Shown here in pieces: positions 8,456 to 58,191 of a stretch of 64,000 nucleotides of DNA. The position numbers and the translations under genes are program-made. The stretch comes from Pseudomonadota bacterium (GTDB lineage: Bacteria > Pseudomonadota > Gammaproteobacteria > Burkholderiales > SG8-39). How positions within the stretch are numbered: position 1 is the stretch's first letter; each line of letters starts with the position of its first letter. The notes beneath the pieces are model-generated. The model had not been told where the DNA came from. It saw nothing but the letters and a program-made list of their open reading frames with translations, and did not search any database. The stretch spans positions 6,265 through 70,264 of the forward strand of contig JANXRV010000094.1 in the NCBI GenBank assembly GCA_025356665.1. The letters are read 5' to 3'.

Positions 8456-10189
8456 ATGGCAAAAAAACCCATCAAGAAACTGCGAAGCCAGGCCTGGTTC
8501 GGACGCGAGGATATTTACGGTTTTATCTACCGATCCTGGACGAAAAACCGCGGCATCCCTCATGACCAGTTTGACGGCAGGCCGGTTATCGGCATTTGCA
8601 ACACCTGGTCTGAACTGACCCCGTGCAATTCTCATTTCCGCGCACTTGCGGAGCACGTGCGCAACGGGATTCTGGAAGCGGGCGGGTTTCCACTCGAGTT
8701 CCCTGTAATGTCGTTGGGCGAAACATTGCTGCGTCCGACGGCGATGATGTTTCGCAACCTCGCCAGCATGGATGTCGAGGAATCAATTCGAGCCAATCCC
8801 CTCGACGGCGTCGTTCTGCTGGTCGGTTGCGACAAGACCACCCCTGCCTTGCTGATGGGCGCGGCCAGTGTCGATGTGCCGGCCATCGCCGTTTCTGGCG
8901 GCCCGATGCTCTCGGGAAAATACCGTGGCACCGACATTGGGTCGGGCACCAACACCTGGTCGATGTCCGAGGATGTGCGCGCCGGCAAGATGACGCTCGA
9001 CGAGTTCCATGAGGCGGAGTCATGCATGCACCGCTCCCACGGCCATTGCATGACCATGGGCACCGCCTCAACCATGGCGAGCATGGTCGAGGCGCTTGGC
9101 ATAGGCATGCCGGGCAACGCCGCTTTCCCCGCCGTGGATGCCCGGCGCAATGTGCTCGCACGCATGGCCGGCCGGCGCATCGTTGACATGGTCAAAGAAG
9201 ACCTGACCATATCGAAAATCCTCACCCGGCAGGCGTTTGAGAATGCCATCCGCACCAACGCCGCCATCGGCGGCTCGACCAACGCGGTGATTCACCTGAT
9301 CGCCCTTGCCGGCCGCCTCGGCGTCAAGTTGGACCTCGACGATTGGGACCGCCTCGGCAGCGGCGTACACACCCTGCTCAACCTGATGCCCAACGGCAAG
9401 TTTCTGATGGAGGATTTTTGCTACGCCGGTGGCCTGCCCGTGGTGCTGCGCGAACTGGGTAAGAACGGCCTGCTGCACAAAAAGGCACTGACGGTAAATG
9501 GCCAGACAATCTGGGAAAACAACAAGAACGCCGAGTGCTTCAATCGCGACGTCATCACCCCGTTTGAAAAGCCGTTCAAGAAAAACACCGGTATCGCCGT
9601 ACTGCGCGGTAACCTGTGTCCTGACGGCGCAGTCATAAAGCCCTCGGCGGCGACCCCCAGACTGATGAAGCACAAAGGCCGCGCCGTGGTATTCAAGAGC
9701 ATCGACGATTTCCACGCGCGCATTGACGATCCGAAACTCGACATCGATGAGAACTGCGTCATGGTGCTGCAAAACTGCGGCCCCAAGGGCTATCCGGGCA
9801 TGGCCGAGGTGGGAAACATGCCCCTGCCTCCCAAGGTCTTGAAAAAAGGCATCACCGACATGGTGCGCATCTCGGACGCCCGCATGAGCGGCACGGCTTA
9901 CGGCACGGTTGTGCTGCACGCGGCCCCGGAAGCGGCGGCCGGCGGCGCGCTGGGCCTGGTGCAAGATGGCGACATCGTCGAACTGGACGTGGCAAAGCGC
10001 AAGCTCCACCTGCATGTTTCCGACGAAGAACTCGAACGCCGGCGAAAGAAATGGAAAGCACCAAAAGCACCGATGCAGCGCGGCTACTACAAACTGTATG
10101 TGGATCACGTATTGCAGGCCAATCAGGGGGCCGATCTGGATTTCCTGGTCGGGAAAAGCGGATCAGATATCCCGAAAGACAACCACTAA
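8456..10189 (+). CDS. IlvD/Edd-family dehydratase (pentonate/hexonate acid-sugar dehydratase type)
   Basis: Track ORF 8333..10189. The realistic start is the ATG at 8456 (MAKKPIKKLRSQAWFG...). The IlvD/Edd hallmarks CDKTTPALLMGAA and SDARMSGTAYG are present. 577 aa. Confidence 0.9.
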   Translation: MAKKPIKKLRSQAWFGREDIYGFIYRSWTKNRGIPHDQFDGRPVIGICNTWSELTPCNSHFRALAEHVRNGILEAGGFPLEFPVMSLGETLLRPTAMMFRNLASMDVEESIRANPLDGVVLLVGCDKTTPALLMGAASVDVPAIAVSGGPMLSGKYRGTDIGSGTNTWSMSEDVRAGKMTLDEFHEAESCMHRSHGHCMTMGTASTMASMVEALGIGMPGNAAFPAVDARRNVLARMAGRRIVDMVKEDLTISKILTRQAFENAIRTNAAIGGSTNAVIHLIALAGRLGVKLDLDDWDRLGSGVHTLLNLMPNGKFLMEDFCYAGGLPVVLRELGKNGLLHKKALTVNGQTIWENNKNAECFNRDVITPFEKPFKKNTGIAVLRGNLCPDGAVIKPSAATPRLMKHKGRAVVFKSIDDFHARIDDPKLDIDENCVMVLQNCGPKGYPGMAEVGNMPLPPKVLKKGITDMVRISDARMSGTAYGTVVLHAAPEAAAGGALGLVQDGDIVELDVAKRKLHLHVSDEELERRRKKWKAPKAPMQRGYYKLYVDHVLQANQGADLDFLVGKSGSDIPKDNH

Positions 10190-19655: not shown

Positions 19656-20318
19656 TTAGCCCTTGGCCTTAAGCGTTTTGACGCCTTGCGCCGTGCCAAG
19701 CAGGGCGATATCCGCGCCACGGCGGGCGAACAGGCCGCAGGTGACGACACCGGCGATCTGATTGATCGCGGATTCAAGCTCCATCGGCTTCAGGATAGAA
19801 AGGCCGTACACATCGAGAATCAGATTGCCATTGTCCGTGGTGAAACCCTGGCGCAGTTCGGGACGACCTCCCAACTTGACCATTTCACGACCGACATAGG
19901 AACGCGCCATGGGCAGCACCTCAATGGGCAGAGGGAACTTGCCGAGCACCCCAACCAGCTTTGATTCATCGGCGATGCAAATGAATTTACGTGAGACGGC
20001 GGCGACAATTTTTTCCCGTGTCAGCGCGCCGCCCCCGCCCTTGATCATCGCCATGTGCTCGGTGATCTCATCCGCGCCATCCACATAAACCGGAATCTCG
20101 CTGACGCTGTTCAGGTCAATGACACGAATGCCGTTGGCCTTCAGGCGTTCGGCTGACTTTTCCGAACTCGCCACGGCGCCGTCGATGCGCCCCTTTATTT
20201 TTCCCAGTTCATCGATGAAAAAATTCGCCGTCGATCCGGTTCCCACTCCAACGATGGAATCCTGCACGTACTTGATAGCCTCGCGCGCCACCGCCTGCTT
20301 GAGTTCGTCCTGGGTCAT
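19656..20318 (-). CDS. rpiA: Ribose-5-phosphate isomerase A
   Basis: [18 protein letters not shown]...[17 protein letters not shown]...DGADE... is canonical RpiA. The ATG at 20318 overlaps the lpdA stop (ATGA). Confidence 0.9.
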
Positions 20319-33218: not shown

Positions 33219-34634
33219 TCAGGCCTCTTCGGCCCGATTGCCCTTGTCTTCCAGACCGAGCTCCTGAATTTTGCGCGTAATGGTGTTGCGGCCGATGCCC
33301 AGCAAATTGGCCGCTTCAATGCGCCTCCCGCCGGTATGTGCCAGCGCCTTGGCGATAAGCACTTTTTCAAATTTTCGCGACAACGAATCCATGATGCCCG
33401 ACTCGCCGCGGGCGAGGGCTTTTTCCGCCTCGCGCGACAGCGCGCCAATCCAATCAGAACCCTGCACACGCGAAGATTCTTCACGCAACTCTGGCGGCAG
33501 ATCGTTGATTTCTATCGACTGCCCCGCCGCCATCACCGTCAGCCAGTGACAGACGTTCTCAAGCTGGCGCACGTTGCCCGGAAAGTCATGTGCGCTCAGA
33601 TAATTCATTGCCGCTTCGGTAAGACGCTTGGCCTCCATGCCAAGATCTTTCGCGCTCTTCGCCAGGAAATGACGCGCCAGCAGCGGAATATCCTCGCGCC
33701 GTTCGCGCAGTGACGGCAGGCGCAGACGAATGACGTTCAAGCGATGATAAAGGTCCTCGCGAAATTGTCCGTCCTTGACCCGCGCCTCAAGATTCTGGTG
33801 GGTCGCGGCAATGACACGCACATTGGACTTGATAGGTTGATGACCGCCGACGCGGTAAAAATTGCCGTCTGAAAGAACCCGTAACAGCCGCGTCTGCAAA
33901 TCAGGTGGCATGTCGCCGATCTCATCGAGAAACAGCGTCCCGCCTTCGGCCTGCTCAAAACGGCCACGGCGCATGGCTTGAGCACCGGTGAACGCGCCGC
34001 GCTCGTGACCAAACAGCTCGGACTCAAGCAGGTCCTTGGGCATTGCCGCGGTGTTGATTGCGACAAACGGCTTGGACGCGCGCGCACTATGTCGGTGCAG
34101 AGCTTGGGCGACCAACTCTTTGCCAGAACCCGATTCGCCGGTGATCAGCACCGTCGCATTGGATTGGGAAAGCCGACCGATGGCCCGAAACACTTCCTGC
34201 ATCGAAGGCGCCTGGCCGAGAATTTCCGGCGAGGTCTGAGCAACCTCAGCCACCTCGTCCTCGCGCATCGATTCATCGATTGCGCGCCTGATCAACTCGA
34301 CCGCCTGGTCGACATCGAAGGGTTTGGGCAGGTACTCAAACGCCCCGCCCTGAAACGCCGCCACCGCCGACTCCAGATCAGAATACGCGGTCATGATAAT
34401 CACCGGCAGCGTCGGATATCTTTGCTTGATGTTTTGCAACAAATCCAGGCCGGAAGTGCCCGGCATGCGAATGTCCGAAACGAGCACCTGCGGCGCCCCC
34501 GAGGCGAGCGCATCGATTGCATCCTGGGCAAGGGCGAAAGTCTTGTAGGGAATGCCCTCGCGCGTCAGCGCTTTTTCGAACACCCAGCGTATGGACTTGT
34601 CGTCATCAACGACCCAGACTGGTTTCATATTCAT
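33219..34634 (-). CDS. ntrC: Nitrogen regulation protein NR(I), sigma-54-dependent response regulator
   Basis: Receiver domain ([13 protein letters not shown]...SDIRMPG), AAA+ sigma-54 interaction domain ([22 protein letters not shown]) and a C-terminal Fis-type HTH. Confidence 0.9.
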
Positions 34635-34655
34635 TGGTTCTTTCTCATAATTCCG

Positions 34656-35738
34656 TCAGGGGAAAGGCAGCACGATGCGAAAACACGTTCTGCCAGGCTG
34701 GCTCTCCGCTTCGATGACGCCGTGATGATGCTGCACGAAGGTTTGCGCCAGCGTGAGGCCCAGGCCGGTCCCGCCTTCCCGACCGGAAACGAGCGGATAG
34801 AAGACTCGATCACGGATTTCAGGAGGAATTCCCGGCCCATCATCGATCACTTGCAATTCTAATGCCAGCCGATAACGCTTCCTCGCCAGCGTGACCTGCC
34901 GCACGACACGCGTGCGCAGCTCAATCACCCCGGAGCCCGAAAGTTGCGGCCACGTGGCCGGTTGTGCTGCAATCGCCTGTGCTGCGTTACGTGCGATATT
35001 CAGGATGACTTGAATCAGCTGTTCACGATCTCCCTGGATCTCCGGCAGGCTGGTGTCATAGTTACGACGAATCCGGATGCCGTTTGGAAACTCGGCCAGG
35101 ATCAGGCTGCGCACCCGCTCGCATACCTCGTGAATGTTGAGCGGGCCGATATGCGGCGGCCGGTGCGGCGTGAGCATGCGATCCATCAAGGACTGCAGCC
35201 GGTCCGCCTCCTTGATGATCACCTGGGTGTATTCGCGCAGTTCGGGGCGATCGAGCTCGCGTTCAAGCAACTGTGCCGAACCGCGCAAGCCGCCCAGCGG
35301 ATTCTTGATCTCGTGCGCCAGATTCCGGATCAGCTCGCGATTGGCCAGATGCTGGTTGAGCTGCTGCTCCTCGCGCTCGATACGCAGCTGCTGCTCAATC
35401 GGGCGCAACTCCATGATCAACTGAAAAGACCCGTTGTCCACCGGCGTCACAATGCAGTTGAGCGCAAGCGGCTCCAGTCCGGCGCGTCCGAGAATGCGCT
35501 CCTGCTCGGCAAACCCCCAACCGCTACCAATCGACTGACGCAGCTTCGCCTCGAATTCACCGGCATCTGTAAAGAGGTCAAGGAAAGGCTGGCCGAGAAT
35601 GCTCTTCTGGCCAACGTCAAAGAGCGCCTCGGCCGCAGGATTGAGGTATTGGACCGACAGACGCCCGTCTAGCGTCACCACCGCCGTGGCGAGCAGATCG
35701 AGTCCCGCATAGGACGGAGCAAGCATGCGCTTCAGCAA
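34656..35738 (-). CDS. ntrB: Nitrogen regulation sensor histidine kinase NR(II)
   Basis: PAS-like N-terminus, H-box LAHEIKNPLGGLRGSAQLL and an ATPase domain (DDGPGIP, GGTGLGL). It sits directly upstream of ntrC. Confidence 0.9.
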   Translation of the reverse strand: MLKRMLAPSYAGLDLLATAVVTLDGRLSVQYLNPAAEALFDVGQKSILGQPFLDLFTDAGEFEAKLRQSIGSGWGFAEQERILGRAGLEPLALNCIVTPVDNGSFQLIMELRPIEQQLRIEREEQQLNQHLANRELIRNLAHEIKNPLGGLRGSAQLLERELDRPELREYTQVIIKEADRLQSLMDRMLTPHRPPHIGPLNIHEVCERVRSLILAEFPNGIRIRRNYDTSLPEIQGDREQLIQVILNIARNAAQAIAAQPATWPQLSGSGVIELRTRVVRQVTLARKRYRLALELQVIDDGPGIPPEIRDRVFYPLVSGREGGTGLGLTLAQTFVQHHHGVIEAESQPGRTCFRIVLPFP

Positions 35739-35766
35739 CAGGCCGCGCAGCGACGCGCAGCGTTGC

Positions 35767-36255
35767 TTATTTGAGGGTGGAAAGTTCCTTTTGCAGCGCC
35801 TGGATGTTTTTCTGGTGCTGGTCTACCCTGTCCTTGAATGGCTGCAAACGTTCCGTCACCTTGGCGAAATTGCGCTCGTCGCCATTGCGCACCTGCTCCT
35901 GCTCGACGAGCTTCTGCTGCGCGTCCTTGAGAAACTGCTGCTCTGCGCCGAGTTCGGTTTGCAGTATCTTTCGTCTGCCGTCGTCGCGCGATTTTTGCGT
36001 CGCGACATCCACGCGCGGAAAGCCCGCCGGCGTCGTGGCAGCACGTGACGTCTGGCCGGCCGGTGCCGCCGGTATCGGTGGCACCACCGAAACCTCCCGG
36101 CTTACTGCCGTACATTTTTTGCCCGACATCTCTTCCTTGACATTGGTGTAAGTCGAACGCCCGTTTTCGTCCTTGCACAAATAAGTTGTGCCGGCACCTT
36201 GTGCCATCGACCAGGAGCTGGCGCAGATCAGAACCAAAACACTTGAATAGCGCAT
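35767..36255 (-). CDS. Secreted DUF4124-like coiled-coil protein
   Basis: I prefer the ATG at 36255 (MRYSSVLVLICASSWSMAQG signal peptide). A DUF4124-like segment (TYLCKDENGRSTYTN) is followed by a Pro-rich linker and a Gln/Glu-rich helical tail. It lies between glnA and ntrB. Confidence 0.6.
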   Translation of the reverse strand: MRYSSVLVLICASSWSMAQGAGTTYLCKDENGRSTYTNVKEEMSGKKCTAVSREVSVVPPIPAAPAGQTSRAATTPAGFPRVDVATQKSRDDGRRKILQTELGAEQQFLKDAQQKLVEQEQVRNGDERNFAKVTERLQPFKDRVDQHQKNIQALQKELSTLK

Positions 36256-36406
36256 GACATTCATCAGGAAATCGCCCGAGCGACACATCATCAAAAGAGT
36301 GCATGAAGTCTAGGCCAGAACCCACGTGATTTCAAACCTTTTACGGCTGCATTAATGAAAACGGGGGCAGCAATGCCCCCGTTGGAAAAAACATCCAAAC
36401 GATTGA

Positions 36407-37822
36407 TTACAGACTGTAATACATATCAAACTCGATCGGATGCGTGGTCATGCGGAAACGCGTGACCTCGTCCATCTTGAGTGTGATGTAGGCATCGAGC
36501 ATATCGTCGGAGAACACACCACCCTTGGTCAGGAAAGCGCGATCTTTGTCGAGTTCGGCCAGAGCCTGATCGAGCGAATGGCAGACGGTCGGAACCTTTG
36601 CCGCTTCTTCCGGCGGCAGGTGATACAAGTCCTTGTCGATCGGCTCGCCCGGATGGATTTTGTTCTGCACACCATCGAGGCCTGCCATCAACAACGCGGC
36701 AAACGCCATGTAGGGGTTGGCAGTGGGATCCGGGAAACGAACCTCTACACGACGCCCCTTGGGATCCGTGACATAGGGAATACGGCAAGCCGCCGAACGA
36801 TTGCGCGCAGAGTAAGCCAGGTTGATCGGCGCCTCGAAGCCCGGAACCAGGCGCTTGTAGCTGTTGGTACCCGGGTTGGTGATGGCGTTGAGCGCTTTGG
36901 CGTGCTTGATCACACCTCCGATGTAATACAGCGCGAAATCCGACAGCCCTGCATAACCGTCGCCGGCAAACAGGTTTTTGCCGTCCTTCCATACCGACTG
37001 GTGCACGTGCATGCCCGAACCATTGTCACCCACAACCGGCTTGGGCATGAAAGTGGCGGTCTTGCCATAGGACGCGGCAACCATGTGGACCGTGTACTTT
37101 AGAATCTGGTTCCAGTCGGCACGTTTTACCAGGCTGTTGAAACGCGTGCCGATTTCGCACTGGCCGGCCGTGGCGACTTCGTGGTGATGCACCTCGACTT
37201 CAACGCCCTGCGCTTCGAGCGCAAGCGACATCGCGTTACGGATGTCCTGCAGCGTATCGGTCGGCGGAACGGGGAAGTAACCGCCTTTTACCGGGGCGCG
37301 GTGCGCCATGTTGCCGCCGTCGTACTCGATGCCGCTCGACCAGGGCGCCTCTTCGGAACTGATTTTCACGAAGGATCCGGACATGTCCGCGGCCCAGGTG
37401 ACGGAATCAAAAATGAAAAATTCCGGCTCGGGGCCAAAGTAAGCCACATCGCCCAGTCCGCTGGACTTGAGATAAGCCTCGGCACGCTTGGCAAGCGAGC
37501 GCGGATCGCGGTCGTACCCTTTGCCGGTGGACGGCTCGATCACATCGCAAGTGATGTTAAGCGTGGTTTCATCGGTGAACGGATCGATGCGCGCCGAATC
37601 CGGATCCGGGTACAGCAGCATGTCTGAAGCTTCGATGCCCTTCCAGCCGGCGATCGATGAGCCGTCGAAGGCATGGCCGCTGTCGAACTTGTCCTGGGTA
37701 AATTGCTTGGAGGGCACCTGAACGTGTTGCTCCTTGCCCCGGGTGTCGGTGAATCGGATATCAACGAACTTGACTTCCTGATCCTTGATCATCTTCAGTA
37801 CATCGGCGGCAGACAATGCCAT
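36407..37822 (-). CDS. glnA: Glutamine synthetase type I
   Basis: 471 aa with canonical GSI motifs ([15 protein letters not shown], the adenylylation-loop region NLY-type, [10 protein letters not shown]). Confidence 0.95.
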
Positions 37823-48033: not shown

Positions 48034-50847
48034 ATGGACGAGACCACCCGCATCCTGATCGACGCCGACAAAGTGCTTGCGGTGGTTACCGCCGTGGCCA
48101 AAGAAGCGCGTCCGCACGTCGCGCTGCACGCCACGCTCGACAGCTCGCTGGAAAAAGAACTGGGGCTCGATAGCCTGGCGCGCGTCGAGCTGGTGCTGCG
48201 CCTGGAAAAGGAGTTCGGCGCCAGCCTGCCCGAACAGGCGCTGGCAAGCAGCGAATCAGCGCGCGACCTACTTCGCTTCCTGTTCGCCTCGGTCGGCCAT
48301 GCGCCGCGCGCCGCCGACACCCGTGTCGCCAGCCTGGTGCAGGAGGGCGGCGTGCGCCCGCCCTCGGAGACGCAGGCGCGCACCCTGGTCGAGGCGCTGG
48401 AGTACCACGTCGAGCACCAGCCCGACCGCCTGACGGTGTTCATGTACGAGGAGCGCGAGGAGTTCCCGCTCAGCTACCGCGCGCTCTGGGACGGCGCCGC
48501 CGGCTATGCCGCGCGGCTCGCCGACGCCGGCCTGCGGCCGGGACAAATGGCGGCGATCATGCTGCCCACCTGCAAGGAGTACCTCTACGCCTTTTACGGC
48601 GTGCTGCTGGCCGGCGGCGTGCCGGTTCCGCTGTACCCGCCGGCGCGGCTGACGACCATCGAAGACCACATGAAGCGCCACGTCGGCATACTGCAAAGCG
48701 CCGGCGCGGTGATGATGATCACCATTGCCGAGGCGCGGCCGCTCGCCTACCTGTTGCGCGCCCAGGTCGACTCGCTGCAAAAGGTGCTGGTGCCGGCCGA
48801 CCTCGCCGGCCCGCCTGACGCCAACTTCATTGCCGCGCGCGGCAAGCCCGGCGACACCGGCTTTTTGCAATACACCTCGGGTAGCACCGGCAATCCCAAG
48901 GGTGTGGTGCTGTCGCACGCCAACCTCATGGCCAACGTGCGCGCCATGGGCGCGGCGGTCAATACCAACCGCGAGGACGTGTTCGTCAGCTGGCTGCCGC
49001 TCTACCACGACCTCGGCCTGATCGGCGCCAACTTCGCCTCGCTGGTGCTGGGCTTCCCGACGGTGCTGATGTCCCCGCTCGCCTTCCTGTCGCGGCCCTC
49101 GAGCTGGATGCGCGCCATCCACCGCCACCGCGGCACCCTCTCCGGCGGGCCGAATTTTTCGTTCGAGCTGTGCCTGCGCCGTATTCCAGACGAGGAAATG
49201 CAGGGCATAGACTTGTCGAGCTGGCGCTTTGCCTTTAACGCCGCCGAGCCGGTGAGCCCGGACACCATCGTCGCCTTCGAAAAACACTTTGGCCGCTACG
49301 GCCTGCGCAAGAACTGCCTGTCGCCCTCGTATGGCCTCGCAGAATCCTCGGTCGGCGTGGCGATCACCACGCCGGGCACGCCCTGGCGCGCCGACCGCCT
49401 CGACCGCGAGCGCTTCACGCGCAGCGGCGAGGCGGTGCCGGCGCCCCCCGACGACGCGTCGCCGCTGCGGGTGATCGGTTGCGGTACGCCGATTCCCGGC
49501 CATGACCTGCGCGTGGTTGATGCGGCGGGCCTCGAGCTGCCCGACCGCCAGGAGGGGCAACTGCAGTTTCGCGGCCCCTCCTCCACCTCGGGCTATTACC
49601 GCAACCCGCAGGCGACGCGCACCCTGTTCGACGGTGACTGGGTCAACACCGGCGACCGCGCCTACCTGTCGGACGGCATCCTGTTTATCACCGGGCGCGA
49701 GAAAGACATCATTATCCGTGGCGGCCGCAACATCAGTCCCTATGAGCTCGAGCAAGCGGTGAGCGACCTCGCCGGCATCCGCCGCGGCTGCGTCGCGGTG
49801 TTCGGCAGCAACGACCCTGCCGCCGGCACCGAACGCGTGGTGGTGCTGGCAGAAATGCGCGACAAGGACAGCACCCGCCACGATGACTTGAAGCGCATGA
49901 TCAACGAGCTCGCGCTGCGCCTGATCGGTGCGCCGGCCGATGACATCGTGCTCGCACCCGCCGGTACCGTGCCCAAGACCTCAAGCGGCAAAATCCGCCG
50001 CGTCGCGGCGCGTGAATTCTACGAGCGCGGCCCCACCGCGGTGAAACGCCACGCGGTATGGCTGCAGTTCGCGCGCCTGCTGCTCGCCGGCGCCGCGCCG
50101 CAACTGCGCCGCGGACTGCGCGCCTTCGGCGGTGTGTTGTTCGCGCTGCGCGCCTACCTGGCGCTCGCCGCGCTGCTGCCGCTGGCGTTTTTCGCCGCGC
50201 TGCTGCTGCCGGTGAAACCGTGCTGGAACACCGGCCGCATGGTGGCCAGGCTGTTCCTGAAATTTTCCGGTATCGCGGTCGCGGTGCGCGGCCTCGAGCA
50301 CCTGCACGCGGGCAAGACCGTCGCCCTTGCGGTCAATCACACCAGCTACCTTGACGCGCTGGTGCTGTTGTCCATACTGGAATACCGTGGCTACGCCTTT
50401 GTCGCCAAACGCGAGTTCGAAAGCAATATGCTCATGCGCACTCTGCTCGAGGGCTTTGGCACGCACTTTGTCGAGCGCTTCGACGTCGCCAAAAGCGCGG
50501 AACACGCCGGCGACCTGACCACCGCCGCCAAGCGCGGCGTCTCGCTGATCGTGTTTCCCGAGGGCACGCTGGTGCGCAATTCAGGACTCATGGCGTTTCG
50601 CACCGGCGCTTTCCAGGCCGTGGCCGAGGCCGGCATCGCGGTGGTGCCGGTCGCGCTGCGCGGCCTGCGCTCGGTGCTGCGCGACGGCACCTGGTACCTG
50701 CGCCGCGCCCCGGTGACCGTGACCATAGGCGCGCCGCTCCTGCCCGAGGGCAGCGACTGGGCCGCGGCGGTGAAGCTGCGCGACGCGGTGCGCGCCGAAA
50801 TCCTCAAGTCCTGCGGCGAACCCGACCTTGCCGGGGGCAAACACTAG
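48034..50847 (+). CDS. Tri-domain fusion: phosphopantetheine carrier domain, fatty-acyl-AMP ligase, TM segment and PlsC-type acyltransferase
   Basis: Carrier motif LGLDSLARVEL. Adenylation motifs LQYTSGSTGNPKGVVLSH, WLPLYHDLGLI, TGDRAY, GREKDIIIRGGRNISP and PKTSSGKIRR. A hydrophobic stretch follows at ~aa 690-740. LPLAT motifs are NHTSYLDALV (HX4D) and FPEGT. Confidence 0.8.
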   Translation: MDETTRILIDADKVLAVVTAVAKEARPHVALHATLDSSLEKELGLDSLARVELVLRLEKEFGASLPEQALASSESARDLLRFLFASVGHAPRAADTRVASLVQEGGVRPPSETQARTLVEALEYHVEHQPDRLTVFMYEEREEFPLSYRALWDGAAGYAARLADAGLRPGQMAAIMLPTCKEYLYAFYGVLLAGGVPVPLYPPARLTTIEDHMKRHVGILQSAGAVMMITIAEARPLAYLLRAQVDSLQKVLVPADLAGPPDANFIAARGKPGDTGFLQYTSGSTGNPKGVVLSHANLMANVRAMGAAVNTNREDVFVSWLPLYHDLGLIGANFASLVLGFPTVLMSPLAFLSRPSSWMRAIHRHRGTLSGGPNFSFELCLRRIPDEEMQGIDLSSWRFAFNAAEPVSPDTIVAFEKHFGRYGLRKNCLSPSYGLAESSVGVAITTPGTPWRADRLDRERFTRSGEAVPAPPDDASPLRVIGCGTPIPGHDLRVVDAAGLELPDRQEGQLQFRGPSSTSGYYRNPQATRTLFDGDWVNTGDRAYLSDGILFITGREKDIIIRGGRNISPYELEQAVSDLAGIRRGCVAVFGSNDPAAGTERVVVLAEMRDKDSTRHDDLKRMINELALRLIGAPADDIVLAPAGTVPKTSSGKIRRVAAREFYERGPTAVKRHAVWLQFARLLLAGAAPQLRRGLRAFGGVLFALRAYLALAALLPLAFFAALLLPVKPCWNTGRMVARLFLKFSGIAVAVRGLEHLHAGKTVALAVNHTSYLDALVLLSILEYRGYAFVAKREFESNMLMRTLLEGFGTHFVERFDVAKSAEHAGDLTTAAKRGVSLIVFPEGTLVRNSGLMAFRTGAFQAVAEAGIAVVPVALRGLRSVLRDGTWYLRRAPVTVTIGAPLLPEGSDWAAAVKLRDAVRAEILKSCGEPDLAGGKH

Positions 50848-50916
50848 GCCGGTACAACGCGCAACCGGCATAGCGATGCATTCAGGCCTGCGCGATATCC
50901 CGGCAAGTGCGGTTGC

Positions 50917-52854
50917 CTAAGCGCCGGCAAGGCGTACGCGCAAGGCCCGCAGCGAGCCCAGAATCAGCCGTCCCACCGAACTTTCTTCCGCCGTCACTTT
51001 TTCCACGCTGTCAGGCTTGTCAACCTTCTGTTGCAGCAGCAACTTGGGCTGCGCCTTGTATTTCTGGAATTGCGCCATCGCGGCGGCAACGTGCTGCTGC
51101 AAGGTCGGCAGCTTCAACGGTTTGTTCAGGAAGCGGAAAATCTGCGCCTGGTTGATCAACTCGATCACCAGATCCGAGTCCGAGGCGGCGGTCATCGCGA
51201 TGGTAAGAATCTGCGGATGTTCGCGCTTGAGCATCTTGAACAGCGTACGGTTGTCCTGCTGGCTGCCCTCGATGTCGGCCACAAGGACGGCGACCGATTC
51301 GTCGCGCAATACGTCGAGCGCACTCAGCAGGTCCGGCGCGTGCAGTATGCGATATTGCGTTCCAAACAAGTCGCGCGCGGCCAGATAGATTTCCCGGTCG
51401 TCATCAACGATCAGCACCGCCTCGCCGGGCTTCGCGCCGCCAACCACCGCCGCCGGCGCGTCCTCGAGCGCAAGGCCGATTGCCGCCGCGTCCGACAGCA
51501 GGGTACGGATTTCAGCCGTGTTCCAAGGCTTGTTGGCAAAGCGGTAGACCTCGCCTTCGTTGATCGAACCGATGATTGCCGCCAGATCGGAGTATCCGGT
51601 CAGCAGGATGCGCACGGTATTGGGCGAGGTCATCTTCGCCTTGGAGAGCAGCTCGGTGCCATTCATGTTGGGCATGCGCTGGTCGCTAACCAGGACGTGA
51701 AAATGCCGCTCCTTGAGCCACACCAGCGCCTGTGCCGCATCGGTCGTGACGTGCACGTCGTAATGCTGCTTGAACAGCAGCTTGAGCGCCGAAAGAATGC
51801 GCTCGTCGTCGTCGACAAACAGCACGCTGGGACGCACCGTCTGCGCGCCTGCCGCGACACCGGGCAGGGTGGTGCGCGCAGCAGAGGTGTCGATCTTGCG
51901 TGTCACCGAGGTAAAGTCGATTTTGCGTATCGCCCCCGGCGTCATCACCGTACGCAGCGGCAGCGGCGTCATATGCGTCATATGCGTCAGCTGCACGGTC
52001 TGATCCGGATCGGCGATGCCATCCCAGATCTCGCCGTCAAAAGCCGCATCCATGGCCCTGGCAAAAGCCTCCGCGTCAATGAACCGATCGACTGATTTGA
52101 CCGCCAGCGCCTTGAGCAACACCGCGTCGAACGCGCTGTGCAAATCAGGATTAACCTCGCTCGGCGGCACCGGCGGCGTATGCAGCACCGCGTGCATAAG
52201 CGCGCCGAGCGAGTCGCCGATGAACGGCTTGCGTCCGGTCAGCAATTCATACAGGGCGACACCGGCGGAAAAAATGTCCGCGCGGGCGTCGATGGCCTGC
52301 CCCTGAAACTGCTCGGGCGACATGTAACTGGGGGTGCCCAGGACCGTACCCATCTGCGTCAGTTTTAACGAGTCGATCTGGGCGATGCCAAAGTCGGACA
52401 CCTTGACGCGCCAATCGGTCGTCATCATCAGATTGGAGGGCTTGATATCACGGTGCACCACGCCTTGGCCGTGCGCAAAAAACAGCGCCCCCAGGATCTG
52501 CCCGACCAGCGGACGCGCCCGGTCGGCGGCCAGCGGCACGCCCGGCGTGAGGTATTCGTTCAGCCCGCGCCCGTCGACGAACTCCATGGCGATGTAGGCA
52601 TGCTCGCCATCTTCACCGTACTCGTACACGCTGACTATGTTCGGGTGCAGCAGCCGGCCGGCCGCCTGCGCTTCCCGCTTGAAACGATCGAGCAGGTCCT
52701 GCGCTTCGGCCGGATCGAGCAGGCGCTTGATCACCGTCTTTAGCGCCACCGGGCGCTGGATTACCGGGTCGAGGGCGCGGTAGACGACGCCCATGCCGCC
52801 GCGGCCCAACTCGCGCTCGATGGTGTATTTGCCGATTTTTTGCGGGAGGGTCAT
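50917..52854 (-). CDS. Hanks-type Ser/Thr protein kinase fused to two receiver (REC) domains
   Basis: Kinase motifs GRGGMGVVY, ALK, HRDIKPSN, DFGIA and SPEQ. REC1 has FVDDDERIL...VLVSDQRMP...LLTGY...NKPW. REC2 has IVDDDREIY...VLVADIEG...AMTAAS...NKPL. The start overlaps the upstream kinase stop (ATGA). Confidence 0.85.
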   Translation of the reverse strand: MTLPQKIGKYTIERELGRGGMGVVYRALDPVIQRPVALKTVIKRLLDPAEAQDLLDRFKREAQAAGRLLHPNIVSVYEYGEDGEHAYIAMEFVDGRGLNEYLTPGVPLAADRARPLVGQILGALFFAHGQGVVHRDIKPSNLMMTTDWRVKVSDFGIAQIDSLKLTQMGTVLGTPSYMSPEQFQGQAIDARADIFSAGVALYELLTGRKPFIGDSLGALMHAVLHTPPVPPSEVNPDLHSAFDAVLLKALAVKSVDRFIDAEAFARAMDAAFDGEIWDGIADPDQTVQLTHMTHMTPLPLRTVMTPGAIRKIDFTSVTRKIDTSAARTTLPGVAAGAQTVRPSVLFVDDDERILSALKLLFKQHYDVHVTTDAAQALVWLKERHFHVLVSDQRMPNMNGTELLSKAKMTSPNTVRILLTGYSDLAAIIGSINEGEVYRFANKPWNTAEIRTLLSDAAAIGLALEDAPAAVVGGAKPGEAVLIVDDDREIYLAARDLFGTQYRILHAPDLLSALDVLRDESVAVLVADIEGSQQDNRTLFKMLKREHPQILTIAMTAASDSDLVIELINQAQIFRFLNKPLKLPTLQQHVAAAMAQFQKYKAQPKLLLQQKVDKPDSVEKVTAEESSVGRLILGSLRALRVRLAGA

Positions 52855-54704
52855 GCGGCGAGCTGCACGGTTTTCGCCAGCTCGGCCTGCTGCGTGACAT
52901 CGGCGGGCAGCGTGATGGTAAAGCGCGTCCCCCGTCCGATCACCGAATCCACTTCAATACGGCCGCTGTGCTCGGCAATGATCTTGTAGGCAATCGACAA
53001 TCCCAGTCCGGTACCTTCGCCGACTTTTTTGGTCGTAAAGAACGGGTCGAATATTTTTGGCAACACCTCCGCGGGTATGCCGCTGCCGTTATCCTCTATT
53101 TCGACGCATACGCTGGCACCACGCAGCACCGTGCGCAGCGTAATGACGCCGTTGTCCCCGGTTGCCTGCGCTGCATTGGAGATCAGGTTGAGGAACACCT
53201 GGTTGATCTGCGACGGGGAGCCGGTGATGTGCGCATACGGCGCGAGTTCTTTCTTGATAATTTTGGTCTTGACCAGGTTCTTGGCAATGACCAGCGTGCT
53301 CTCAAGGCCTTCATTGAGGTCGAATCGCGCGGTTTTGGCGCGATCCGGGCGGCTGAAGTTTTTCAGGTTGAGCACGATTTCCGAAATCTGGTCGATGCCG
53401 TACAAGCCGTCCTTTACCAGGTTCGAAAGTTCGGCGGCGCCGTGGCCCTGCTCCGCTGCAAGGCAAAGATCCCGAACGCGCGCAAACTGCGCGGAAATCC
53501 TGTCCTCGGACGCCTCGCCCGAACTGAGCAGATCAAGCAGTTGGCGCGTTTCGACAGCCATCTCGGAGGCGTGCGGCAGTTGCTCTTCCAGCACCTCAAG
53601 CCCGCTGCGCACGTAGGCCAGCGGCGTATTGATTTCATGCGCCACCCCGGCAATCATCTGTCCGAGGGAGGACATTTTTTCCGACTGGATGAGCGCGCTC
53701 TCCGAGTCCTTGAGGTGCTGCAGCGCGTCAGCCAGTTCCGTCGTGCGCTCGGTCACGCGATGCTCAAGATTCTCGTTGACCGACGCAAGCTCGGCGTTCT
53801 TTCTCTGGATGAGCTGGTAACTGTGCGCCAGCCGCCAGGCCAGCCAGACCATCAGCGCGAGCACAATCGCCGAATAACCGATCAACAACGTACGGTAAAA
53901 GTTCGTCGCCTCGGTTATCTGCTGCTTTTCCGACTCGAGCGCCCGCTCAAGCGCGACCAGGCGCTGCTGCGTCGGCAGCGCGGCAATCTCGTTGAGGATG
54001 CCGTCTTCGATGGCTTTTTGCTTTTGCACGCTGCGAAACTTCTCTATCAGCGCGGTTACCGTGGGTCCGACATCGCCCGGAGAGGCGGCGACCTTGCCGC
54101 CAAGGTCGTTCAGGCTCGAATCAATGCGCGGCAACGCCGATGCGTCGTTGAGAAGGTTGTACTTGAGCGTTTCGGTGAGCAACTCGTTGATGCGCAGCCC
54201 GAGCGTGGAATACGACTCGGCCATTTGCACGCCCTTGGGGCCCTTTACCTGCGCCGCGTCACTCTGCAGTTCGCGCAATTGGGCCAAAAACTCCTGGCTC
54301 TCGTCGGTAACAAAGCGCAGCGACTCCTTGAGAATCTTGTTTTGTTCAGCAAAGCGCGTGGTGACCGCCTTTTTCTGTGCAAATACTTCAGCCAACCCGG
54401 CGGCGCCGTCGACCGCAGCGGACAACCCAAGGGCAGCGGCCGCCGCGCTCAGCTTGACGGTGGATTCGCGCACCCGATCAGCCGGCGCCTGGCCGGCGGC
54501 GTAGTTGCGGTTGATACCGGTCTTGGCACGCAGGGAATCAACCGTCCATTCCGCATCGAGGGCCTCCAACTCGCGCAAGTCGGCAATGAGCGCATCTTCG
54601 CGCAGGAATTGGGTGGCCTGGGTCTTGGCATAAAGAAACCAGAGCACTCCGGCAAGCGCCAGGACGAGGCCGAAAGTCGCCAGTTGGCGAAGTTTTTTCA
54701 TCAC
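52851..54704 (-). CDS. Membrane sensor histidine kinase with a large helical extracytoplasmic domain
   Basis: TM1 (FGLVLALAGVLWFLY), then ~270 aa rich in Ala/Leu/Glu/Gln, then TM2 (LLIGYSAIVLALMVWLAW). A coiled coil follows, then the H-box AGVAHEINTPLAYV and ATPase motifs (NLISNA, DNGSGIP, GTGLGLS). The GTG at 54704 is followed immediately by the ATG at 54701. Confidence 0.85.
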   Translation of the reverse strand: MMKKLRQLATFGLVLALAGVLWFLYAKTQATQFLREDALIADLRELEALDAEWTVDSLRAKTGINRNYAAGQAPADRVRESTVKLSAAAAALGLSAAVDGAAGLAEVFAQKKAVTTRFAEQNKILKESLRFVTDESQEFLAQLRELQSDAAQVKGPKGVQMAESYSTLGLRINELLTETLKYNLLNDASALPRIDSSLNDLGGKVAASPGDVGPTVTALIEKFRSVQKQKAIEDGILNEIAALPTQQRLVALERALESEKQQITEATNFYRTLLIGYSAIVLALMVWLAWRLAHSYQLIQRKNAELASVNENLEHRVTERTTELADALQHLKDSESALIQSEKMSSLGQMIAGVAHEINTPLAYVRSGLEVLEEQLPHASEMAVETRQLLDLLSSGEASEDRISAQFARVRDLCLAAEQGHGAAELSNLVKDGLYGIDQISEIVLNLKNFSRPDRAKTARFDLNEGLESTLVIAKNLVKTKIIKKELAPYAHITGSPSQINQVFLNLISNAAQATGDNGVITLRTVLRGASVCVEIEDNGSGIPAEVLPKIFDPFFTTKKVGEGTGLGLSIAYKIIAEHSGRIEVDSVIGRGTRFTITLPADVTQQAELAKTVQLAA

Positions 54705-54766
54705 GCTCCCTTTTTATGGCGCTCCCGCCACCGGCCGCCACGGCCGGGGGAACGGGGGCGAGTGAA

Positions 54767-55051
54767 TCAGGACTTGGGAGCAGGCGCCGAGGCCGGGGTC
54801 GCCGCAGCCAGTTTACCGCCGACTTTCAGGCAGGTTCCTTTGGCGACATAAGACCATTCGTCGGGAGCATTATCGGTTTTGGAGTAACCGGCACAGGCGT
54901 GCACCGAATTGGCGCACGAATTTTTACCGGCCTTGGATACACCGAAACATTTTTCCTTGGCGGCTTTGTCATCGGCCGCAGAGGCGGCAGAAACAACACC
55001 GAGGGCAAGAAAACCGGCAAGGGCGGAACGGATGATCAGATTGTGGTTCAT
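54767..55051 (-). CDS. Secreted DUF2282-type Cys-rich peptide (bufferin BufA1-like precursor)
   Basis: A Sec signal peptide ([25 protein letters not shown]) is followed by [47 protein letters not shown]. This is the four-Cys DUF2282 signature. RBS AAGGAA lies 8 nt upstream. Confidence 0.7.
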
Positions 55052-55188
55052 GGCTTTGGATTCCTTATTCGAGGACGAGGACGAGCTTGGTCAAGGATGA
55101 TTCCGACTTCTGACCGTTGGTCGCATCCGGCCGCCATGCATTACAAAACTTTATAAAAATAGAAATTTTTATTTCTGAATAACCACTT

Positions 55189-55210
55189 GTGCGTCAAATG
55201 TGCGTCAAAT
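55189..55210. repeat. Perfect 11-bp tandem duplication (GTGCGTCAAAT x2)
   Basis: 55189-55199 equals 55200-55210. On the minus strand this reads ATTTGACGCAC x2, i.e. two TTGACG hexamers one helical turn apart, ~140-160 nt upstream of the DUF2282 gene. Confidence 0.7.
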
Positions 55211-55281
55211 GACGCTTCGCACCGGGAGACCGGTGGCCATTGGCCGTGCCTGACAATGGGCGGGATGGGGCGGTGCTACCC

Positions 55282-56166
55282 CTATAAACACTCGAAGGTG
55301 ATGGCGTCAGCCGCACCGCTACCCGGAACGCCCAGGCTGACGCTGCCACTGGCGCGCAACAGCACCGAATCGCGGCGGATCATGAGTTCCTGCTCCGACC
55401 CGATTGATACATAAGTGCCGTTGGTCGAATCGTCCACAAGAAAGAACTGCACGCCCCTGCGCTCTATCCGCGCGTGCTTGCGCGAGGCCGTTTTTTCGTG
55501 AATCACCAGTTCGCAGCCCTTGTCGCGCCCCAGCCACAGCGCCGCCTTGTCCGGGGGAAACTCCATGCCCGCGCCGCCATGCGTCAGCTTGAGCCGGCCC
55601 TGCGCCTGCGGCCCGCGTACCGGTCGGAACACCTGCGTTGATTCCAGATCGTCCTCCCAGACAACCTCGAAAATGCGCAACGCGTCCTGCTTGCCCTTGA
55701 CGTTAAGGGCGTCAAGGTCGCGGGTCGCTGCACGCAATTCCGGCCCAAGGGCATCTACGCTGGCGCCACTGGTGAGGATCTGCCTGCGGCGGGCGAGGCC
55801 GGCCAGCCGCGCCGCCGTATTCACCCCGTCGCCCCAGAAGTCGTTCTTGTCTTCAAGGACCTGGCCGTAGTGAAAGCCGATCTTGATCGCGAGGCTCACG
55901 CCCCCGGTGATTGGCAGCCCGTCCACCGCTGCCTGCATCGCCTTGGCCGCCTCACAGGCCGCATCTGCGCTGGGAAAGGCCGCCATAATCTCATCGCCGA
56001 TGGTCTTGACCACCGCTCCCTGCCAGAGCGACACGTGCCTTGCGAGAACCTCAAGACAGGCGTCGATGGCCTGCGCCGCCGGTTTGTCGCCCAGCAATTC
56101 GTACAACGCGGTGCTGTCAGTGACGTCAGCGAACAAAATCGCGCGCTGTTTGGAGACAAGCGTCAT
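55282..56166 (-). CDS. Class III adenylate/guanylate cyclase fused to a C-terminal FHA domain
   Basis: Cyclase motifs FADVTDSTALYE, KTIGDEIMAAF and WGDGVNTAARL. FHA motifs GRDKGCELVI...SRKHARI...DDSTNGTYV. Confidence 0.85.
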   Translation of the reverse strand: MTLVSKQRAILFADVTDSTALYELLGDKPAAQAIDACLEVLARHVSLWQGAVVKTIGDEIMAAFPSADAACEAAKAMQAAVDGLPITGGVSLAIKIGFHYGQVLEDKNDFWGDGVNTAARLAGLARRRQILTSGASVDALGPELRAATRDLDALNVKGKQDALRIFEVVWEDDLESTQVFRPVRGPQAQGRLKLTHGGAGMEFPPDKAALWLGRDKGCELVIHEKTASRKHARIERRGVQFFLVDDSTNGTYVSIGSEQELMIRRDSVLLRASGSVSLGVPGSGAADAITFECL

Positions 56167-56235
56167 GATCTACTCAAATACAGTTGGCAAGGCAACCGGC
56201 ACATCAGCGAAAAAGTCTGCGGCGCTTTCCTTGTG

Positions 56236-56565
56236 CTATTTCATTTTTGAATAGGAGGTCGGCGCGAGCATGGAGTTTTCCACGCGCACAACGATCTGGC
56301 CGTCTTCCTCGGTTTTGGCACGCGCCTTGTGCCAGGCCGGATCGGCCGCAAACTTGTTCCACTTTTCCTCGCGCTCGGCGAGGCTCTTCCATTCAAGGAT
56401 GTAAGTCAGCTTGTTGTTGCAGTTGTCGCCGATGTAGTCGGTGAAAAACCCGACCTGGCGGATGCCGTGCTTTTTCCACATCTTGAGCGTGACATTGGCA
56501 AAGCGCGCGTTAAGCGCGGCCAGGCGGCCCGGAAGGGTATGGTAGATGCGCATTTCATAAATCAT
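56236..56565 (-). CDS. NIPSNAP-family protein
   Basis: 109 aa. MIYEMRIYHTLPGRLAALNARF...W...GIRQVGFF... is the typical NIPSNAP dimeric alpha-beta-barrel pattern. Confidence 0.7.
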   Translation of the reverse strand: MIYEMRIYHTLPGRLAALNARFANVTLKMWKKHGIRQVGFFTDYIGDNCNNKLTYILEWKSLAEREEKWNKFAADPAWHKARAKTEEDGQIVVRVENSMLAPTSYSKMK

Positions 56566-56742
56566 GACGGGCTTTCCTATAGCGGTGTGGTGGGGATGCT
56601 CCGATTTCCGGGGCGTACATCAATCAATTGCAGCTGCGGCCTGCAAGTCTAGCGCAAGGCTTGGGTATGGTATGCCTAAAGTCACCGTCAGACCGGAGAC
56701 TCAATCCCCCGTTGCGCCGCAGCCGATGCACTAACATCAGGC

Positions 56743-57375
56743 ATGCGCCAAAAGCAGGAACCTCTCGCCATGCAACAAAGTCCCCGGTTCGCAGCCGCCG
56801 CCATGCGCCGCATCTTCTTGCTGATCACGCTCGTGTTGGTTTGCGCGCCGCAGGTCCGCGCCGACGCCATCGCCGATGCCGCGCGCAGCGGTGGGGTGGC
56901 CCTGTTGATGCGCCATGCCACCGCGCCGGGCACCTTTGATCCGGACGGCTTCCGGCTGAACGATTGCCCGACCCAGCGCAACCTTTCTGACGCCGGACGG
57001 GACGAGGCGCGGCGCATTGGCGCCCACCTGAAGAAACGCGGCATCATCCCCGGCGAAGTACTGACCAGCCAATGGTGCCGCTGCCGGGAAACCGCCACGC
57101 TGGCGTTTGGCGCGGCACGCGACTGGCCGGCGCTGAATTCATTCGTGAGCAACCGCGACAGCGAGGCGCAGCAGGTTGCCGAAGTGCTCGAACGCCTCGC
57201 CAGAATGAAACCGGGTGACAAGCCTCTGGCGTTGGTAACCCACCAAGTCATCGTAACGGGGGTCAGCGGCGTATATCCGGAATCGGGTGAGGTTATCGTG
57301 ATGACGGCCGCGCGCCAGGACGGCAAGGTAGTCGTGAAGGTAATCGGCAGCATCAAGCCGAACGAGGCGAAATAG
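56743..57375 (+). CDS. Histidine phosphatase (SixA/PGM-like) family protein, probably exported
   Basis: Signal-like MRRIFLLITLVLVCAPQVRA, then the RH catalytic motif LLMRHATAPG and LVTHQVIV. The start is uncertain (56743, 56770 or 56803). Confidence 0.7.
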   Translation: MRQKQEPLAMQQSPRFAAAAMRRIFLLITLVLVCAPQVRADAIADAARSGGVALLMRHATAPGTFDPDGFRLNDCPTQRNLSDAGRDEARRIGAHLKKRGIIPGEVLTSQWCRCRETATLAFGAARDWPALNSFVSNRDSEAQQVAEVLERLARMKPGDKPLALVTHQVIVTGVSGVYPESGEVIVMTAARQDGKVVVKVIGSIKPNEAK

Positions 57376-57492
57376 GCAAAGGTTTGCCCCCGATCAACAG
57401 GCGCGGCCAGCGCGAGAAAAGTTACCCGGTTTTCCCACTACAATGCCCCCACTTTCTCCAATCCGCAGCCCCACCTTGAAAGCGCATAGGCC

Positions 57493-58191
57493 ATGTTGAA
57501 GTACTACTACAACGCCTCACCCAACCCGATGAAGACCACCCTGATGCTCGAGGAGCTGGGTCTGCCCTATGAGGCGATCGCCATCGACACACGCAAGGGC
57601 GAGCAATTCTCCGCCGAATTGCTCAAGGTCAACCCTAACGCCAAGGTGCCCGCGATTGTGGACGGTACTGTTCGCGTGTTCGACAGCAACGCCATCCTGC
57701 TCTACCTCGGTGACAAGGAAAAACGCTTTGTCGCGCCGGTCAGCGACAACGCCGCGCGCGGCGAGATGCTGTCCTGGCTGATGTTTATCGCCACGGGCGT
57801 GGGCCCGTTCTCGGGGCAATCGGTCCACTTTCGCCATGCCGCCCCCGAGCCCAAGGAATACGCCCTCAACCGCTACGACTTCGAGGCGCACCGCCACTGG
57901 AAGATTGTCGAGGAGCGCCTCGGCGCTTCGCGCTACATGGCGGGCAAGGAATACTCGATCGTCGACATGGCCTGCTGGGGCTGGGCACGCATGATGCCCT
58001 ACGTGCTGGGCACCGGCGACGCCACCTGGGCCACCTACCCGAACATCAAGCGCCTGCTCGATGAAATCAACGCCCGCCCCGCCATGGCGCGCGTTGAAGC
58101 CCTGCGGACGCGCCAGGCATTCAAGGCCGAAATGGACGACGAGGCCAAGCGCTTCCTGTTCCCGCAAAACAGCCGGCTGAAGAAGGGCTAA
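57493..58191 (+). CDS. Glutathione S-transferase family protein
   Basis: Thioredoxin-like N-domain (NPNAKVPAIVDG...VFDSNAILLYL) and a helical C-domain. 232 aa. Confidence 0.85.
   Translation: MLKYYYNASPNPMKTTLMLEELGLPYEAIAIDTRKGEQFSAELLKVNPNAKVPAIVDGTVRVFDSNAILLYLGDKEKRFVAPVSDNAARGEMLSWLMFIATGVGPFSGQSVHFRHAAPEPKEYALNRYDFEAHRHWKIVEERLGASRYMAGKEYSIVDMACWGWARMMPYVLGTGDATWATYPNIKRLLDEINARPAMARVEALRTRQAFKAEMDDEAKRFLFPQNSRLKKG

Follow-up and report, generated by a model that had tools for sequence, protein, structure and literature searches.

A widespread histidine kinase/Ser-Thr kinase pair and a putative bufferin-headed operon under predicted sigmaF-type control in a Burkholderiales genome

In a 64-kb window of the Burkholderiales contig JANXRV010000094.1 (assembly GCA_025356665.1; the window denotes the whole stretch of DNA analyzed), the gene of a sensor histidine kinase (HK) and that of a Hanks Ser/Thr kinase carrying two receiver domains (STK-REC-REC; REC, receiver) were found to overlap. 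They belong to a widespread, uncharacterized gene pair that is predicted to form a two-component pathway with a Ser/Thr kinase as its output. In one branch of the family, the pair appears to be a member of a sigmaF-like regulon, and the predicted operon is headed by a dedicated paralogue of the bufferin 1 precursors, designated BufA1-S (stand-alone bufferin 1 precursor). As a cyclase-FHA gene is usually encoded next to it in this branch, the locus may connect four signalling chemistries.

An earlier inspection of the same DNA (the original prediction) had placed four open reading frames (ORFs) on the minus strand, encoding a class III cyclase with an FHA domain, a secreted Cys-rich peptide, the HK and the STK-REC-REC protein. 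All four were recovered at identical coordinates in the ORF check of the window, and every domain assigned to them passed the Pfam gathering cut-off in the hidden Markov model (HMM) annotation run. The intergenic distances are 230 bp between the cyclase and the peptide gene, 62 bp between the peptide and the HK gene and −4 bp between the HK and the STK gene, so that tight spacing applies to the last three genes alone. The predicted overlap of the HK stop codon with the STK start codon (ATGA; gccgcATGAccctc) was seen in the sequence. The assumption of one tight block of four genes had to be revised, since the 230-bp spacer holds a promoter motif of the ECF type (ECF, extracytoplasmic function sigma factors) that would serve the last three genes only. 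The locus is therefore best described as two putative units, a bufA1-S/HK/STK-REC-REC operon and a separate cyclase-FHA unit.

The DAHL histidine kinase and its Hanks kinase partner

The HK (52851-54704, minus strand; 617 aa) consists of a first transmembrane helix, a periplasmic double all-helical (DAHL) domain, a second transmembrane helix and the HisKA and HATPase_c domains. The transmembrane segments were read from the sequence. The DAHL domain (PF19443) spans residues 37-271 between the two helices and scored 102.5 bits against a cut-off of 38, whereas HisKA and HATPase_c reached 32.6 and 99.2 bits, all above the gathering cut-offs. The H-box reads AGVAHEINTPL and contains the phospho-acceptor His. 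The start codon is GTG, with an ATG 3 nt downstream. The definition of the DAHL domain goes back to Tlp10, a chemoreceptor of Campylobacter (Elgamoudi et al., 2021, as cited in PMC9796306). A sequence search of the domain against the PDB gave no meaningful match and no solved homologue.

The STK-REC-REC gene (50917-52854, minus strand) encodes a predicted response regulator of 645 aa with a Hanks Ser/Thr kinase as the output domain. The Pfam scores were 168 bits for Pkinase and 110 bits, in two stretches, for Response_reg. The kinase domain (residues 10-276) is followed by a Thr-rich linker, REC1 (344-452) and REC2 (about 490-600). The kinase residues K39, E61, D136, N141 and D154 are intact, and K39, D136, N141 and D154 were invariant in an alignment of 16 sequences. 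In the same alignment, D348, D349, D391, T419 and K442 of REC1 were invariant, as were D527 and T555 of REC2, while K578 was nearly so. The statement of the original prediction that both receiver domains are apparently intact thus holds for the key residues of both. The acidic pair of REC2 is complete in the window protein and variable across the family, so that some members may use REC2 as a regulatory pseudo-receiver. The REC pair resembles receivers of the RpfG/NosR type (NCBIfam NF053512; E-value of 7e-59, below the cut-off). In the Thr-rich linker between the kinase and REC1 (residues 280-340), the motif RKIDFT(S/A)V is kept across the clade with an STK identity of at least 60%; this motif could be a site of autophosphorylation or of docking.

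More than 7,900 homologues of STK-REC-REC were found, mostly in Burkholderiales and other Betaproteobacteria, with Polaromonas, Ramlibacter and Pelomicrobium as named examples. For the neighborhood analysis, a set of 84 loci (referred to by L numbers) was obtained from a scan of metagenome contigs with a REC2-specific alignment and from individual homologue look-ups. A scan with the full-length STK alignment had been discarded, because its pattern was the generic HRDIKPSN and 79 of 80 loci contained unrelated Hanks kinases. A locus was counted as informative if the N-terminus of the STK was located on the contig. In 59 of 59 informative loci, a DAHL-HK homologue was identified immediately upstream of the STK, at identities down to about 40% and with an estimated gap between −22 and +35 nt. 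The same gene order was observed among the called genes of five other loci (L164, L165, L166, L171 and L173). All-against-all clustering of ORFs revealed no further conserved neighbors of the pair, apart from lineage synteny (e.g., purD) and spurious ORFs of high GC content.

This conservation strongly suggests that the HK acts as cognate kinase on the REC domains, in a two-component pathway that has the Hanks kinase as its output. The pairing of HK and REC domains, already drawn in the original prediction, is its strongest inference. In the proposed mechanism, the HK would sense a periplasmic cue through its DAHL domain, autophosphorylate and pass the phosphoryl group on to its translationally coupled partner, at Asp391 of REC1 and possibly also at Asp527 of REC2. 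Phosphorylation of the receivers would then switch the N-terminal Hanks kinase and turn a His-Asp input into Ser/Thr phosphorylation. If so, the pair would be a clean and widespread natural case of a two-component input being converted into Ser/Thr phosphorylation.

The bufferin precursor and the ECF-type promoter motif

The peptide gene bufA1-S (54767-55051, minus strand) codes for 94 aa and matches PF10048 (DUF2282/BufA1) with 72.1 bits (cut-off 22.4 bits; E-value of 3.6e-20). Judged by eye, the protein has a Sec signal peptide with n-, h- and c-regions that ends in …SAASA and is followed by ADD…. The four Cys residues (C35, C46, C53 and C74) are conserved in all orthologues. Membership of the BufA1 family is described by a Sec signal peptide, four conserved Cys residues and a length of 80-120 aa (PMC11626156). 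Proteins of the DUF2282/BufA1 family are Sec-exported precursors of ribosomally synthesized and post-translationally modified peptides (RiPPs), in which the MNIO BufB, together with its DUF2063 partner BufC, turns the central Cys residues into 5-thiooxazoles, and mature bufferin 1 chelates copper in the periplasm (PMC11626156). Stand-alone bufferin precursor genes have been recorded earlier (PMC12452194). BufA1-S is accordingly classified as a predicted periplasmic copper-binding RiPP precursor. The secreted Cys-rich peptide is thus not an unknown but a member of a known family that needs the maturases BufB and BufC, and the suggestion that it might be metal-loaded fits the copper binding described for bufferin 1 (PMC11626156).

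BufA1-S represents a distinct paralogue with the core KEKC[FY]G..KAGKNSC…HACAGY.K..N.P.EW. Its gene was found directly upstream of the HK in the window, L001, L085, L164, L165, L171 and L173, which together make up all seven lineages of one clade. An HMM built from three BufA1 sequences did not detect it (E < 1) in the about 55 more distant HK-STK loci. Between lineages of the clade, identities amount to 67-79% for HK and STK (69-77% for the STK among six measured lineages), and these values indicate separate taxa rather than near-duplicates. A full bufferin cluster (MbnB/HvfC) is located within 7 kb in five of the seven lineages (L001, L164, L165, L171 and L173) and is divergent from bufA1-S in L171 and L173. 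The shared promoter motif described below suggests that, in the clade's ancestor, the gene was inserted between an ECF-type promoter and the HK gene.

Some further features were observed around bufA1-S. The spacer between bufA1-S and the HK gene contains a predicted GC-rich stem-loop (CCGGCCG-UGG-CGGCCGG; 54731-54747, minus strand; centroid structure). A comparable hairpin was present in five of six orthologous spacers with weak z-scores (−0.7 to −1.8), and it is possibly a partial terminator or a stabilizer. Upstream of MbnB-HvfC, Cys-rich peptides with Sec signals are encoded in L001 (3416-3733; 105 aa) and L164 (308-619; 103 aa). The former has no Pfam match and for the latter none is on record; both are probably BufA2-type precursors. 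In L165, a protein with a YHS domain, a putative copper-binding module, is encoded between bufC and bufA1-S (6094-6546).

To our knowledge, bufferins were described only in 2024, and the only known regulators are ECF sigma/anti-sigma pairs. In Caulobacter, the buf operons are controlled by the ECF pair SigF/NrsF (PMC11626156; PMC3511200), and the sigmaF site was experimentally defined as GTAACC-N16-CGAA (PMC3511200). By aligning the DNA upstream of bufA1-S, the conserved motif TGTAA(N2)-N15/16-CGAC was identified. In the window it reads TGTAATG-N15-CGAC and lies about 70 nt upstream of bufA1-S (55120-55145, minus strand); the match, GTAATG-N15-CGAC from 55145 to 55120, is the only one in 64 kb. 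The motif was found at the equivalent position in L001, L085, L164, L165 and L171, and L173 carries GTAACC-N16-CGAA, the perfect sigmaF consensus. The motif is also present about 50 nt upstream of the HK gene in L002 and L166, two loci that have no bufA1-S. In total, it precedes the operon in nine of nine clade loci with an STK identity of at least 62%, compared with a background of 20 matches in 1.26 Mb of locus DNA (both strands). It is missing from the HK-STK loci of ~40% identity.

The same motif was detected upstream of bufA1-bufB-bufC in L171 and of the BufA2-like/MbnB/HvfC clusters in L001 and L164. In L171, two copies are arranged back to back in the 232-bp spacer (9769-10000) between the divergent bufA1-bufB-bufC and bufA1-S-HK-STK genes. 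An AhpC/Redoxin-family gene recurs beside the module in L001 (10994-11665, minus strand), L164 (5865-6575) and L085 (4374-4829). In L001 and L164 this gene has its own TGTAACG-N15-CGAC motif, which suggests that a peroxiredoxin belongs to the same regulon. As the motif is common to the operon, the bufferin clusters and the AhpC/Redoxin gene, bufA1-S, HK and STK are likely to be transcribed as one unit that belongs to a sigmaF-like regulon of the metal/oxidant-stress response. In L165, an ECF sigma factor and a zf-HC2 anti-sigma factor are encoded upstream of bufA1-bufB-bufC and head the neighboring bufferin cluster.

Two additional sequence features lie a short distance upstream of the ECF-like −35 element in the window. 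At 55189-55210 (minus strand), ATTTGACGCAC occurs twice as a perfect tandem direct repeat, and the AT-rich stretch that comes next contains the inverted repeat AGAAAT-AAAA-ATTTCT (55161-55176, minus strand). Both could be the site of an extra regulator. In the alignment of the relatives' upstream regions, neither was conserved.

The cyclase-FHA gene and the interpretation of the locus

The cyclase-FHA gene (55282-56166, minus strand; 294 aa) showed Pfam scores of 45.6 bits for Guanylate_cyc (cut-off 21.9) and 45.1 bits for FHA (cut-off 20.7). The cyclase residues D14, D58, K54, D109, N116 and R120 were invariant in nine orthologues. The substrate-determining pair K/D is presumably ATP-specifying (adenylate type), assuming the register of Rv1625c, and is regarded as a lead only. 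The FHA residues G213-R214, S228-R229-x-H231 and N249-G250 correspond to the GR, SxxH and NG motifs that define the domain (PMC1262709), which were also invariant in the nine orthologues. Since the gene lies 70 bp downstream of a NIPSNAP-family gene (56236-56565, minus strand) and upstream of the promoter-bearing spacer, it most likely belongs to a separate transcription unit. In L171, a NIPSNAP gene (20265-20288) likewise appears, some 6 kb away from the STK and at the border of the retrieved sequence. The co-transcription of all four genes, as postulated originally, is not a conserved property, because the cyclase gene is convergent with the STK gene in four relatives.

The cyclase-FHA gene adjoins the STK gene in five of the seven informative clade lineages, usually in convergent orientation. 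It is convergent with the STK in L001, L085 and L164, being located directly downstream in the first two and separated by one gene in L164. The loci L084 (1-3153) and L088 (2737-5820) are decayed. Here, the HK and most of the STK have given way to a fragment of an IS91-like transposase and to a secreted protein of 284 aa; of the STK, only a REC2 remnant is still found beside cyclase-FHA and hslUV, and the cyclase-FHA gene of L084 is split by a frameshift. The cyclases of the clade are only 51-57% identical to each other. The persistence of the adjacency through two arrangements, different outer flanks and this low identity argues for a functional coupling. No adjacency was observed in L171, L165/L167, L168, L170 and the P0125 contig. 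In the assembly GCA_965188965.1, both genes are present on separate contigs, with cyclase-FHA beside hslVU; their occurrence in one genome speaks for a link, their separate location against it.

The explanation preferred here comprises an operon in a bufferin-type stress regulon and a cyclase-FHA reader. In this explanation, bufA1-S, the DAHL-HK gene and the STK-REC-REC gene would be transcribed from a sigmaF-like ECF promoter, which would place them in the same envelope metal/oxidant-stress regulon as the bufferin gene clusters. BufA1-S would be exported by Sec, matured in trans by BufB and BufC encoded elsewhere and act as a periplasmic copper buffer. By analogy to ZraP and CpxP, it may also tune the sensor. 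In the BufA1-S clade, cyclase-FHA would be the most likely reader of the phosphothreonine set by the kinase, and docking of the FHA domain would control dimerization or activity of the cyclase, and hence cAMP. Taken as a whole, this explanation could as readily hold as fail. The step from the STK to the FHA-cyclase is possible on its own, falling a little short of an even call, and a direct signalling role of BufA1-S appears doubtful.

Several results weigh against this explanation. With MbnB (two sequences), HvfC (two) and DoxX (one) as queries, tblastn detected none of these genes in the 64-kb window, and the missing maturases imply that BufA1-S may be unmodified here. The promoter motif is not significant in the window alone, as 0.26 matches are expected by chance and 21% of the shuffles gave at least one. 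No ECF sigma factor or sigma/anti-sigma pair was found among the candidate ORFs scanned in the window; the cognate pair could lie elsewhere in the genome. In L171, the closest relative, neither the 6 kb downstream nor the 10 kb upstream contain a cyclase gene. Orthologues of cyclase-FHA with 58-71% identity occur in unrelated neighborhoods, often far from HK-STK. The periplasmic DAHL motifs ALDAEWTVDSLRAKTGINR, EQNKILKESLRFVTDES, LGLRINELLTETLKYNLL and EDGILNEIAALP of the HK, which are conserved in relatives of 62-79% identity, are kept equally in L002 and L166, the lineages without bufA1-S. The literature search retrieved no report on STK-REC-REC proteins or bufferin-linked kinases. It likewise yielded no characterized example of an STK-REC protein or a DAHL histidine kinase, in agreement with the original prediction that no characterized system of such composition is known.

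With respect to the neighborhood and to the reading of the STK phosphothreonine by the FHA-cyclase, the original prediction stood in part. The HK-STK pair was found in all 59 informative loci and BufA1-S throughout its clade, whereas the cyclase gene is adjacent in only five of seven lineages and the peptide in none of the about 55 distant loci. The FHA link is favored by this adjacency. It is limited to the clade and based on adjacency alone, because of the orthologues in unrelated contexts and the situation in L171. If the link exists, the FHA-cyclase neighbor offers a concrete hypothesis for a bacterial Hanks kinase that controls cAMP, with few parts and soluble domains.

One alternative takes the linear circuit literally, with the metal-loaded peptide as the ligand of the DAHL domain and HK, REC domains, STK, FHA domain and cyclase as one dedicated four-gene pathway to cAMP. 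It would explain why the peptide gene is the first of the sensor operon in all seven lineages and would agree with the periplasmic copper binding of bufferins (PMC11626156) and with the frequent adjacency of the cyclase gene (5/7). The loci L002 and L166, which do without the peptide, retain the same promoter and the same periplasmic motifs, so that the groups with and without the peptide probably share their primary stimulus. Moreover, the cyclase gene forms a separate, often convergent unit with orthologues that occur without HK-STK, and the window holds no maturase. This alternative is considered distinctly unlikely. The original proposal of the peptide as the HK ligand is consequently regarded as unproven: BufA1-S is probably not the primary ligand and is more likely a co-expressed copper buffer. 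A related and quite improbable version is that copper-loaded or oxidized BufA1-S is read by the DAHL domain as a RiPP metallophore co-receptor, that the HK drives the receiver-gated Hanks kinase and that its phosphothreonine is read by the FHA-cyclase, which sets cAMP. If true, a sigmaF-type regulon would contain a route by which one envelope metal/oxidant cue is relayed through His-Asp, Ser/Thr and cyclic-nucleotide signalling.

A more restrictive alternative assumes that only the HK/STK-REC-REC pair is functional, that bufA1-S is a passenger sharing its regulon, that the unrelated cyclase-FHA protein reads the phosphothreonine of another kinase and that the STK has other substrates. The cyclase-FHA orthologues in unrelated contexts (58-71% identity) and the position beside hslVU in several lineages, suggestive of a lineage-specific syntenic anchor, are in line with this, as is the lack of an FHA or cyclase gene within reach of the about 55 distant HK-STK loci. 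On general grounds, however, an FHA protein beside one of the few betaproteobacterial Hanks kinases is unlikely to occur by chance, and the adjacency persists through two arrangements, changing flanks and cyclase identities of 51-57%. This alternative is rated as unlikely, though it has to be taken seriously. An anti-phage defense module, either kinase-based like PD-T4-6 or cyclase-based like Pycsar, was rejected as extremely improbable. The PADLOC models PD-T4-6 and mad6 match the kinase domain (E-values down to 4e-91) and PycC matches the cyclase weakly (2.8e-9), but these matches cover generic catalytic domains only, and the similarity is thus at the domain level. No effector gene is present. 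The pair is inherited vertically with conserved housekeeping synteny and invariably includes a periplasmic sensor HK, and the window is ordinary chromosomal DNA.

The remaining part of the window matches this description. According to Pfam, it contains glnA-ntrBC, TRAP and ABC transporters, GGT, an Aas-like acyltransferase, GST and UppP; no copper genes were found among the annotated genes of the 64 kb. The canonical cluster of glnA, ntrB (PAS-HisKA-HATPase) and ntrC (REC-sigma54 activator-HTH_8) at 33219-37822 (minus strand) is unrelated to the operon described here. An Rfam scan of positions 50000-57500 gave zero matches, and a scan for sigma-70 promoters and intrinsic terminators revealed nothing informative.

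Comparison with known systems

The closest known counterpart of the peptide is bufferin 1 of Caulobacter vibrioides (bufA1BCD, SigF/NrsF; PMC11626156; PMC12452194), with which BufA1-S shares the DUF2282/BufA1 signature, the Sec signal peptide and the four conserved Cys residues. A sigmaF-like promoter motif precedes the peptide gene as well, and relatives carry MbnB-HvfC(-DoxX) clusters next door. In contrast to Caulobacter, the precursor gene heads a predicted signalling operon instead of a biosynthetic one, and no maturase is encoded within 64 kb. A term search of PMC11626156 and PMC12452194 found no link between bufferins and kinases. A bufferin paralogue at the head of a sensor-kinase operon with the same promoter type might indicate a second copper/oxidant regulatory tier or a sensing role of a RiPP.

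Hanks kinase and class III cyclase domains also occur together with azole-type RiPP systems, i.e., in the TOMM kinase/cyclase fusion (TIGR03903) and the peptide modification system cyclase (TIGR04510). The window proteins scored 135.7 bits (cut-off 705.75) and 26.6 bits (cut-off 400), respectively. As these values are far below the family cut-offs, the homology is limited to the domain level, and kinase and cyclase are separate proteins here.

The cyclase-FHA protein resembles known partnerships of FHA proteins with Ser/Thr kinases (GarA/OdhI, FhaA/FhaB and EmbR-PknH of Mycobacterium and Fha1-PpkA of the type VI secretion system) in that an FHA protein with intact GR, SxxH and NG motifs is encoded beside a Hanks kinase. 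Different from these, the FHA domain is fused to a class III cyclase, the locus has no gene for a PP2C phosphatase and the adjacency is restricted to one clade.

In the ZraP-ZraSR and CpxP-CpxA systems, accessory periplasmic metal or stress proteins modulate their sensor kinase. The arrangement described here would be analogous, with a small exported metal-binding or stress-responsive protein being encoded and co-regulated with a sensor HK. There is no sequence relationship, BufA1-S is of the RiPP type and the partner regulator is a Ser/Thr kinase rather than a transcription factor.

For the output step, the nearest parallel is PA3346 of P. aeruginosa, a REC-PP2C phosphatase that is activated by the HK PA2824 (as cited in PMC12189002). 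In both cases, as far as the cited account goes, His-Asp phosphotransfer controls, or would control, an enzyme acting on phospho-Ser/Thr. In the system described here, however, the predicted output is a Hanks kinase that is located N-terminal to two REC domains.

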